Positions 7,573 to 61,261 of a DNA stretch of 64,000 bases are shown in pieces (positions within the stretch are counted from its first letter, which is position 1; every line of letters starts with the position of its first letter). Both the position numbers and the translations under genes were made by a program. This stretch comes from Octopus vulgaris (taxonomy: Eukaryota). Where the stretch lies: NCBI GenBank assembly GCA_951406725.2, contig OX597838.1, positions 30,442,001-30,506,000 on the forward strand. The letters run 5' to 3'. The notes under the pieces are model-generated. The model searched no databases and was not told the origin of the DNA. It saw only the letters and a list, made by a program, of their open reading frames with translations.

Positions 7573-8267
7573 TATATATATATATATACATACAAAAGTA
7601 TGTATGCATATATAAACATATGTATGCAAATATATATATGAATGAATGAATGTATGCATGTGTGTGTATGTGCGTGGCTTAGTGGTCAGGGCATTTGGTT
7701 GACAACCATAAGGCTGTGAGTTCAATCCTCAGTAACACATTGTGTCTTTGAGTAAGATGCTTTATTTCATGTGTGTCCAGTGCACTCATTAAATTCAGCT
7801 GGTGTTTGGAACATAAATTGGCATTAAAAACAAGAAGGTTGTATCTTAGGACCAGAAACAGTCCTAGGCATGTTGGTATCAAAAGGGTGAACCCTTTAAT
7901 TACCATGTTTCTATTGAAAAACACTTTGTTTCAATTAATTAATTAACTTAATTAAGTGTTTGGAAGATAAATTAATTGGAATTTTTGATGGAAGTTTTTA
8001 ATTTACGTCACTTGAAAAAGAAGTTTGTATCACAGAAGCAGGGATGGTCTAAAACAGTTTGATATCAAAAGGGACAAAGATTTAAATAAAAACCTTCCAG
8101 CATTTTTGGAAGAATTTATAAAACCTGGTCATTTTCTGCAACCGTTCAAACGACAGAGGTTAACTGGTCATTGACCATTTTAATACCAACACCTCTGCCG
8201 CTCAAGAGATTGAATCAGAGAACCAGGTGGGTCAGTACCAAAAGAGCTAAATGCCTTTTCAACTCTG

Positions 8268-12090: not shown

Positions 12091-12157
12091 CCTTTAACTG
12101 AAATAAACAAACAGAAGAAAATTATCCATCATCATCATCATCATCGTTAATATTATC

Positions 12158-12934
12158 TATTTCTTTACTACCCACAAGGGGCTAAACACAGAGGGGACAA
12201 ACAAGGACAGACAAAGGGATTAAGTCGATTACATCGACACCAGTGCGTAACTGGTACTTAATTTATCGACCCCGAAAGGATGAAAGGCAAAGTCGACCTC
12301 GGTGAAATTTGAACTCAGAACGTAACGGCAGATTAAATACCTATTTCTTTACTACCCACAAGGGGCTAAACATAGAGGGGACAAACAAGGACAGACAAAG
12401 GGATTAAGTCGATTACATCGACACCAGTGCGTAACTGGTACTTATTTAATCGACCCCGAAAGGATGAAAGGCAAAGTCGACCTCGGTGAAATTTGAACTC
12501 TGAACGTAACGGCAGATTAAATACCTATTTCTTTACTACCCACAAGGGGCTAAACATAGAGGGGACAAACAAGGACAGACAAAGGGATTAAGTCGATTAC
12601 ATCGACACCAGTGCGTAACTGGTACTTATTTAATCGACCCCGAAAGGATGAAAGGCAAAGTCGACCTCGGTGAAATTTGAACTCAGAACGTAACGGCAGA
12701 TTAAATACCTATTTCTTTACTACCCACAAGGGGCTAAACATAGAGGGGACAAACAAGGACAGACAAAGGGATTAAGTCGATTACATCGACACCAGTGCGT
12801 AACTGGTACTTATTTAATCGACCCCAAAAGGATGAAAGGCAAAGTCGACCTCGGCGGAATTTGAACTCAGAACGTAGCGGCAGACGAAATACCGCTTAGC
12901 ATTTCGACCGGCGTGCTAACGGTTCTGCCAGCTC
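12158..12934 (-). repeat. Head-to-tail tetramer of SINE family B (4 x 184 bp; the last unit carries the tRNA head)
   Basis: Units start at 12158, 12342, 12526 and 12710, with identical junctions aaatacc|tatttctttac. Confidence 0.9.
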
Positions 12935-26816: not shown

Positions 26817-27149
26817 AAAAAAGCAACAAGAATGGATTAAAATCTCGGTACGATCGTTTCGTACGAGGACATCTTTAATAAGCTACAAAAAATGCAGTGA
26901 ATACAGATGGCTCGTACTCGTCAGCCGAAAAAACATCAGAGAATTCACTGCATTTTTTGTAGCTTATTAAAGATGTCCTCGTACGAAACGATCGTACCGA
27001 GATTTTAATCCATTCTTGTTGCTTTTTTCCTATTTGTAATCACCCCACTTGTCGTATGGTTAACACCATATAGATTTCCGGTGCATCCTAGTTAAGGACC
27101 ATATTCATGTGAATTCTTTAGAATTCACTTGAATCTCAATTACTTAACC

Positions 27150-35199: not shown

Positions 35200-35975
35200 A
35201 TATATATATATATATATATACTTGTATATATAAATAGATGTGTGTATTTTTCCCTTGTTAACAATTAACCTGTACATACATACATACACACACACACATA
35301 TATACATACACACACATAAACAAATGTCTGTATGGATGTTTTAAGTAAAGATTACGAAAGAAAAATAACTCAGAGTCTAGTGGCATCTATGTGATCAATA
35401 TAAACAAGTATATATATATATATATGTATATATATGTGTGTGTGTGTGTGTGTTTCTTTATATATAATTTTTATACCTATATTATTGCGGCGTACGTACA
35501 CCTCGTTCCCTTATGTATGCTTACATTCTATCCATTTGTACGACTTCTAAAAACTTTCTCTATACCTCACTTTCTGTCTTTCTCTTTCTCGCCTTGATTC
35601 TTTGGTCCCCCTCTTCCCCCACGAATGAACAAAACCAACATACCAGGTTTTGTTCATTCATGATATATTTTGAATTCGTTTCACTGAAGAGCAAGAGACG
35701 TAGATAATACGTTAATTGCGAAATCACAGGTGATCTGGAACTAAATTCTGTTTTTAAATGTCTTGCTTCGAGAGCTGCATTCGGTACGATTTGTTTATTT
35801 TTGGTAGTTATGACTTTAAAAGTCCGTCCTAGCGTGTGGCATTTATGTGTAATAATGCCCTCTATATAATATAAATAAATATTTTCAAGTTAAAAAATTT
35901 ACAGATTTTTTCTCTTATGAGGTTTTTCACGCTAACTACCTGATAATTTCTTATTAAGATTTTATCCTATTTTTA

Positions 35976-60216: not shown

Positions 60217-60450
60217 TCTATTATATAAAATCCTTTCTGTCTGTCTGTGTGTGTGTCTTCTAGGATCTCGGGCATCCTCCATCCGATTGTGCTCAAAGTT
60301 GATATGTAGATACCAACGGTATTAGGGCGTCTATAAGTCTTGAAAAAATTGCAAAAATCGATTCCAGGTGAGAATGCGATCGATAAAGCCGTGGGAACGT
60401 GCATTTGTAAAATCGTTTTTCTTGGAATAGAAAAAAAGGCTATCTTTATT
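60217..60450 (+). mobile_element. Non-autonomous Helitron-like 5' end
   Basis: a|TCtattatataaaa start, (ctgt)n tract, and ccgattgtgctcaaagttg motif typical of Helitron-N/HINE elements. Confidence 0.45.
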
Positions 60451-60665
60451 TCTTCTTTTGCTGGTGTCTCAAATTTAGGTTAAATCAGTGTTTCTGAAAG
60501 GGGAGGCCTATGGGACGGTCAGACAAGTTGTTTTGAGAAAATTTGGTTTAAATGTTTGACAACTCAGCGCCCTCCATTGGACAGGGAGGGGCGTTTTGCT
60601 TGTGTATATATATATATATGGCAAATGAAAGACGGAAGATGGAATATATGAGAATTTATTATCTA

Positions 60666-60771
60666 ATCACGACAATTGTTTCGACACATTTAGCATCGAT
60701 CCCTCATGCGTGGAACACTCCACAACTGGTTCAGGATCATCTGGTGGAGCAGGTGTGTCTCATCAGGTGAT
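60666..60771 (-). ncRNA. Type I hammerhead ribozyme, canonical core, with branched stem II insertion
   Basis: atcac-CTGATGA-gacaca...tgtgtc-GAAA-caattg-TC-gtgat: stem I 5 bp, stem II 6 bp, palindromic stem III ACAATTGT, GUC site. AATAAA follows shortly after (60655-60660). The host element ~60619-60840 is flanked by (TA)n. Confidence 0.82.
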
Positions 60772-61261
60772 AGATAGACAGTACCACAATGTAACTTCTC
60801 ATTAAGCTACCAGGTGTAAACCATTCATTTCATTATCCAATATACATATATATATATATTTGATTTTTTGATTTTTCCAGTTTCAGCTAATGAGCTGTGG
60901 CCATGCTGGGGCACCGCCATATATATATATATATAAACTGTACTTGGAGAAGAAGAAACGAAACGAAACGAATTGAATCGAATCGACGTGAGGGCGCTCA
61001 GTCATACAATAGTGTAATGAATAAAATATATGCATACATACATACATATATGTACGTACCTACATCTACATGTATATATACATGCATATATAAATATATA
61101 TACGTGAGTACAGGACACCACAAATAGACGTAGAACTCAACGAGAAACGAAAACGTAAAAACAAGCATGGAACGGACCATTTTTTTTTACAACGAAAAAA
61201 CAGAGTACGAGACAAACTAAACAAGGAAAAAACCCCTTCATCAGCTGTCCCTAGTTCAACT

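Follow-up and report, generated by a model that had tools for sequence, protein, structure and literature searches.

The window analysed here, a 64,000-nucleotide stretch of Octopus vulgaris DNA, carries on its minus strand a type I hammerhead ribozyme motif of the kind found in Penelope-like elements (PLEs); its stem III is palindromic and its stem II domain very large (Table 1). A preliminary description of this DNA had reported such a motif, and sequence reading located every part it had named, along with the (TA)n flanks on both sides and the AATAAA just downstream (60660-60655). The core is complete in this copy (C3 U4 G5 A6 N7 G8 A9 / G12 A13 A14 A15.1 / U16.1 H17), and the arrangement is that of a three-stem junction open at stem I. 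Stem II is indeed big, with one adjustment to the figure of about 70 enclosed nucleotides: 65 nt lie inside the 6-bp stem originally named, and the whole domain spans 77 nt. Stem III can form 2 bp closed by a 4-nt loop in a monomer and 8 bp in a dimer, with a duplex energy of -6.4 kcal/mol. A relaxed hammerhead descriptor recovers the site and matches 3 places in the window, and only 1 of 300 shuffled windows had at least one match; thus, the motif is not a chance arrangement. The Rfam hammerhead models gave no match to it at the gathering score or at E values up to 10, probably because the long arm defeats them. The minimum-energy fold of the whole window copy is not a hammerhead (z -1.45).

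Table 1. Features of the hammerhead-bearing element and its flanks, in minus-strand order
Feature	Position	Strand	Basis
(TA)n microsatellite (insertion target), 5′ side	60841..60859	.	sequence
Inverted copy of the element tail, joined to the truncation point	60800..60842	+	88-92% match to the unit start of L064, L065
Element 3′ UTR remnant with short internal deletion; 5′ truncation near 60803	60772..60803	-	comparison with other copies
Hammerhead stem I, 5′ strand, ATCAC	60767..60771	-	sequence; 88.8% of cells paired, 41 copies
Core strand C3-A9, CTGATGA; U4 = 60765, likely CpG reversion of subfamily C4	60760..60766	-	copy comparison
77-nt stem II domain; GACACA from 60759 pairs with TGTGTC ending at 60683	60683..60759	-	sequence, family consensuses
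GAAA core strand (60682-60679) and palindromic stem III	60672..60682	-	sequence
Stem III palindrome ACAATTGT	60679-60672	-	sequence
C17, predicted cleavage site (GUC)	60671	-	sequence; established hammerhead numbering
Hammerhead stem I, 3′ strand, GTGAT	60666..60670	-	sequence
AATAAA, possible poly(A) signal; also in D, C, A, B consensuses	60655..60660	-	
Fixed 3′ end of element, ~50 nt beyond the cut site	60620..60654	-	comparison of copies
(TA)n microsatellite, 3′ side	60605..60619	.	sequence

Judged by its sequence and that of its relatives, the element is the decayed, 5′-truncated 3′ end of a Hydra-clade PLE joined to an inverted copy of the element's tail. Searching the animal's own genome (2.8 Gb) produced 2635 first-look candidates, and scoring 40 of them yielded 43 matches; among these 40 the best relatives of the window copy are 81-89% identical to it, and none of those sampled exceeds 89%. 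The copies have a common fixed 3′ end followed by (TA)n, and their 5′ ends are free, lying from ~165 to 1850 nt upstream of it. The tail, made up of the initial bases that the following unit has upstream of its ORF, stands directly 3′ of the element end in L003, L005, L010 and L017 and in 3 of the 60 rows sampled for the cut site below; in L064 the 3′ end is followed by the tail and then by the start of the ORF, and L065 is a near-complete unit of ~3.06 kb, compared with one intact ORF and a length generally below 3 kb for the Hydra clade. The fixed 3′ end, the free 5′ ends, the coding long copies and the inverted tail together identify the 220 bp as a truncation product, so that what had been described as a non-coding mini-element is instead a 5′-truncated stub of a coding element. 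Its first 40 nt were considered as a GIY-YIG C-terminus, a candidate we rejected as these nucleotides are the inverted tail.

The longer copies carry a decayed RT plus GIY-YIG frame, broken in every coding copy read, in which Hydra motifs are still visible. RWK is readable in L077 and decayed to RMPWK or RMQWK in L064 and L065, PADKT (DKT replacing DKG) occurs in L063-L065, and a CxCX5C linker and, at the C-terminus, a GIY-YIG domain with CxxC..E..N..CxH and no CCHH were recognised by eye in the broken copies. This set fits the definition of the Hydra clade by RWK, DKT, the CxCX5C linker and a GIY-YIG domain lacking CCHH, as given in the relevant part of Craig et al. (2021; PMC8557442). The preference for (TA)n, the 5′ truncation, the tail and the inverted segments are all present, as in other Hydra-clade PLEs. 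Pfam gave no match at its cut-off for the coding frame, and a search for homologous proteins found none for the RT and three unnamed proteins for the linker-EN. No metagenome loci were found by search, and none of the sequencing runs listed is on record as RNA. A piece spanning the insertion junction is present unchanged (0 differences) in contigs of the organisms designated B and C and with 2 differences in those of D, showing that the insertion is common to several organisms; nothing suggests a host function for it. Two further observations concern the surroundings. An 11-nt stretch of the tail (60800-60842) also occurs in the 3′ sequence that Craig et al. give (File S2) for Penelope-16_HM of Hydra, possibly as a conserved RT start signal or possibly by chance, and a very high-copy repeat with more than 10 times the read depth of the hammerhead family adjoins the element at 60250-60595.

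The core had been described as perfect, which holds for its letters; the U at position 4 is very probably a post-insertion CpG reversion, because the subfamily to which the window copy belongs has C there. An exact hammerhead pattern left free at two CpG sites has 333 matches in the genome, with TG at positions 4-5 in 73, CA in 53 and CG in ~207, and TA was not seen among the first 100 matches listed (hand count). When copies were picked only by their upstream UTR, 24 of 30 could be aligned and showed 15 CG, 5 TG, 1 CA and 3 other. The TG copies are scattered over the tree; in two subfamilies their decay at other CpG sites is about twice that of the CG copies (0.585 versus 0.291, and 0.464 versus 0.242). 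The oldest subfamily, D, is a true U4 group (27 TG, 2 CG and 0 CA among 31), the consensuses of D, E, G and F2 have a canonical core, and those of C, A and B have U4C; in the A and B samples TG and CA copies were over-represented by design, and some loci occur more than once among the 8 C rows. Since D has U4, as do all Hydra rows in File S2 (PMC8557442), the U4C change is later than D and was carried along as C, A and B multiplied. According to the portion of PMC3088659 that deals with this change, U4C lowers activity in vitro and yet occurs in an infectious viroid. The window copy clusters with subfamily A.

The feature that appears to be new here is the arm on stem II. The domain measures exactly 77 nt in the consensuses of eight families and subfamilies (B, A, C, D, G, E, F and F2), and is 68-69 nt long in two H copies. 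The distant families were found with a free-spacer pattern (140 matches, 100 of them listed) and are represented by 23 copies for E, 4 for G (L336 left out), 14 older copies for F (11 cargo copies left out) and 7 for F2. Without gaps, the E, F and F2 arms are 36-47% identical to those of A-D, and F is 32% identical to G. Non-CpG divergence is 8.6% in D, 7.8% in C, 7.4% in A and 6.1% in B, and 11 of 77 arm columns vary among these four compared with 55 of 190 in the flanks (p 0.012). Short stem II domains (8-38 nt spacer) appeared in only 4 matches, all of which look like single deletions. In 12 of 24 loci the F-type hammerhead follows a second Hydra endonuclease that is 33-45% identical to that of the window family; for E, G and H, no coding frame could be tied to the hammerhead among the loci examined. 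A young F subfamily with G12C was considered as an active lineage with a dead core and rejected, as the similarity of its 11 copies extends into the flanks outside the PLE piece, which makes them the cargo of a composite repeat. This young repeat (L341-L344, L347, L348, L353, L354, L357, L358 and L363), is 1.2% diverged, and its copies agree in both flanks; the F-family hammerhead fragment inside it is dead, G12 being changed.

The arms of D, C, A and B fold alike into a rod of 15-16 bp capped by two hairpins, the larger a 7-bp helix closed by a 16-nt loop and the smaller a 3-bp helix closed by a 4-nt loop. In B, both the small hairpin and the rod's outer end show erosion. Using the 16-pair register derived from D, E pairs at 16/16 positions, with 8/8 double-sided changes pairing, G at 13/16, and F at 11/16 with a shifted bulge and 4/5 double-sided changes pairing; F2 pairs at 15/16 in a shifted register, and slid control registers pair at only 1-9. 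Across 41 single copies, 80.1% of cells pair versus 24.6-45.4% when slid, and 43 cells are changed on both sides, a number reached in 0/500 shuffles; counted by pair, however, 10 have a double-sided change, which does not exceed the shuffles (444/500 reach it). The covariation anticipated in the preliminary description is seen in the stem II rod, whereas in stems I and III changes are confined to one side and RNAalifold gave no consensus structure on the 41 decayed copies. The apical part has two hairpins in A-D and G and one in E, F and F2, and an AA..UU apical motif lies at position 29 in 8/8 consensuses. By comparison, the window arm folds differently from its family (z -0.63), differing from the A consensus at 11 positions with 7/24 family pairs broken. 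The two inner hairpins proposed earlier can be drawn on the window copy and are products of its private mutations: the first is complete in 1/53 copies, the window copy alone, and reads from organism D show the ancestral family base at position 60748 of this hairpin. Other structures were tried as well. A kissing homodimer of the apical loop had self-duplex energies no better than shuffles in 7/8 consensuses, and in G, the exception, we rejected it in favour of an internal hairpin; hand-drawn SECIS and k-turn registers in the arm do not pair, and a hidden second cleavage site or intramolecular double hammerhead failed as no stem I or II could be drawn by hand.

Neither of the samples of genomic copies contains one that ends at the predicted cut site. 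Among 30 rows chosen by UTR, 26 extend beyond it and 4 end before it, and among 30 chosen by endonuclease the corresponding numbers are 21 and 9 (the two sets have at least one copy in common, and three copies are near-identical). The RNA that was integrated was thus uncut. The nearest parallel is PAc, a Poseidon element of the green anole, in which, as presented in the pertinent text of PMC11167929, the hammerhead needs protein to cut, and insertion in vitro does not depend on it; PAc shares the tail signature and copies from uncleaved RNA and provides a precedent for a protein-assisted hammerhead. PAc belongs to a different clade, its ORF starts inside stem II and not after the tail as in the window family, and that text describes no long arm for it.

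The predicted cost of the active monomer fold is 0.7 kcal/mol in D, 1.6 in C, 3.9 in A and 5.2 in B, and the G10.1-C11.1 pair is lost (A-G) in 9/14 older F copies. The arm has thus outlived damage to the core in two lineages, C/A/B with U4C and F, and because it stayed while the core weakened, a role in protein binding or RNA folding is favoured. This pattern suggests that the arm serves as a platform for the element's protein. Our reading of the locus as a whole, to which we assign a probability of roughly 0.55, is that a decayed and truncated Hydra-clade PLE end carries a conserved 77-nt arm that would be a platform for the element's RT-endonuclease and not part of the catalytic site. The parent hammerhead would have been a slow cutter of tandem or read-through transcripts, acting as a dimer formed through the stem III palindrome or with the help of protein, and the arm would assist the RT-endonuclease of the element in binding or folding the RNA. 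Cleavage would have been partly dispensable, such that the lineage could keep multiplying after U4C; the window copy would then have decayed neutrally and regained U4 by CpG deamination.

Several other accounts of the arm were weighed against this platform reading. Its apical loop could pair with A14-G16.2 of stem III and lock the ribozyme in an off state, leaving uncut RNA for transposition. In D, C, A and B the loop and stem III form an 8-bp duplex of -7.6 kcal/mol, compared with -6.4 for the palindrome homodimer; this pairing is reached by 5/2000 shuffled loops and is the best site in 300 nt, and F gives -6.8 (46/1000) with a 9/11 match to the core strand at the same position. However, the pairing was found post hoc, is absent in E (-1.5), weak in G (-4.7, 166/1000) and lost in F2 (-3.4), where stem III and the loop changed without compensation, and an old duplication of the palindrome would give it free of charge, which makes a lock quite unlikely. 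Stem II of hammerheads tolerates insertions, and the arm might be such an insertion, with any stable stem II letting the core fold and the length being inherited from a common ancestor of the lineages and not selected. The many domain lengths in other repeat families agree with this, but a length of exactly 77 nt in arms only 32-47% identical, covariation at a distance of 11-16 bp from the core and the scarcity of short domains, all of them deletion-like, render it very unlikely. Alternatively, the apical loop could dock on stem I or its flank in place of the loop I-loop II contact, so that D, E and F2 would cleave well as monomers. The fixed length suggests a defined geometry, the AA..UU motif is present throughout, the active D monomer lies only 0.7 kcal/mol above the minimum, and pseudoknots between stems I and II are common (PMC3088659); against this, the loop pairs weakly with both flanks (-1.2 to -5.1), the arm was retained once the core was damaged and the copies derive from uncut RNA, leaving an activating contact distinctly unlikely.

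We also considered the interpretation offered in the preliminary description, an active, non-coding, self-cleaving and retrozyme-like mini-element selected for its perfect core and having its own two hairpins. A 220-bp length, the lack of an ORF and the presence of all core letters speak for it, as do the 9 of 111 aligned copies with a perfect U4 core; in the window subfamily TG exceeds CA (26 vs 11, hand count, p 0.02), so a small true U4 sub-lineage is possible. Nevertheless, the free 5′ ends run into the ORF, the window holds no tandem copy, no sampled relative is closer than 89%, the TG copies have twice the CpG decay of CG copies, and the first hairpin is private to this copy, with one of its bases still ancestral in organism D. 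Non-LTR retrozymes (PMC7229834; bioRxiv 10.64898/2026.07.22.740005) are similar in having a type I motif and a relationship to PLEs, and the window element is of comparable compactness at ~200 bp, but as characterised in the relevant passages of these sources they are tandem non-coding units of fixed size (150-450 bp) with canonical tertiary contacts, whereas the window element is a single truncation product of a coding element. An active mini-element is accordingly extremely unlikely.

Hammerheads in PLE ends are already known, as is the Hydra clade. The closest described relatives of the window family are the Hydra-clade PLEs, including Hydra-1_Obim, in the portions of PMC8557442 devoted to them; they are alike in RWK, DKT, CxCX5C and GIY-YIG without CCHH, and in their (TA)n target, 3′-end hammerhead and palindromic stem III. 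All hammerheads listed there for Hydra have U4 and loops II of 3-10 nt, in contrast to the 77-nt domain of the window family and the U4C of its younger subfamilies, and Hydra-1_Obim has a different hammerhead and a protein that, by eye, is homologous to but distinct from that of the window family. The metazoan PLE hammerheads of Cervera and de la Pena (2014) resemble it in being type I, lying in the pLTR, having a weak or palindromic helix III, and occurring mostly as single, truncated copies of low expected activity, but the 'larger than usual' helix II in the corresponding section of PMC4209133 measures 7-8 bp, compared with a 15-16-bp rod plus apical domain here. A fixed-length, covarying 77-nt arm was found neither in the literature searched nor in the Craig supplement and appears to be a new feature, with the reservation that Lunse et al. 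(2017), cited for PLE hammerhead dimers in PMC6765202, may list long stem II variants.

Long arms are not confined to this family. Other repeat families have stem II domains of 13-70 nt, and 34 of 73 descriptor matches, from 388 loci chosen for the 77-nt families, differ from 77 nt, so the arm is the long end of a continuum and not a one-off. In the window itself, a second type I hammerhead with a full core lies at 26846-26929 (-), with a 57-nt stem II domain, a GUA site (z -2.89) and a different palindromic stem III; it sits between (TA)n runs, has an inverted partial copy at ~26940-27030 and one 79% relative in L368, and likely represents another PLE family. A third, at 35678-35741 (+), likewise has a full core; its stem II domain measures 29 nt and its stem III 5 bp. 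A (TA)n run follows ~245 nt further on, and the downstream part is an 85% match to L057 and L076. Hammerhead-like motifs with domains of 30-70 nt were also seen in other repeats, several as homologous pairs (L008/L091, L019/L163, L005/L137, L094/L231, L100, L255, L315). These could include cases of the 'half cores' of Naiads; six stem III motifs searched for in the Craig supplement were not found there, so we make no link to Naiads. Among the unrelated repeats of the window, a tRNA-like match at 7669-7740 (+), 31.8 bits with many non-standard pairs, is probably the head of a tRNA-derived SINE, and 12157-12893 holds four tandem copies, 98% alike, of a 184-bp unit that we take to be part of a common octopus SINE.

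A broader and rather unlikely extension is that the 77-nt arm is a module making the hammerhead a switch set by the element's protein, which would stay locked or idle while the RNA must remain whole for reverse transcription and be released later. Long-armed hammerheads (25-77 nt), common in this genome, evade standard descriptors, and under this proposal PLE groups reported without hammerheads, such as the Naiads, whose 'half cores' are separated by 35-50 nt, may have them. For the annotation of such elements, CpG decay can by itself give a single genomic copy a "perfect" core, and a sizeable class of animal hammerheads escapes Rfam and short-spacer descriptors. The families form a natural series, with canonical cores in D, E and F2, a successful U4C lineage in C, A and B and a common arm of fixed length, on which the importance of cleavage, of the arm or of the two together in PLE hammerheads can be tested directly.
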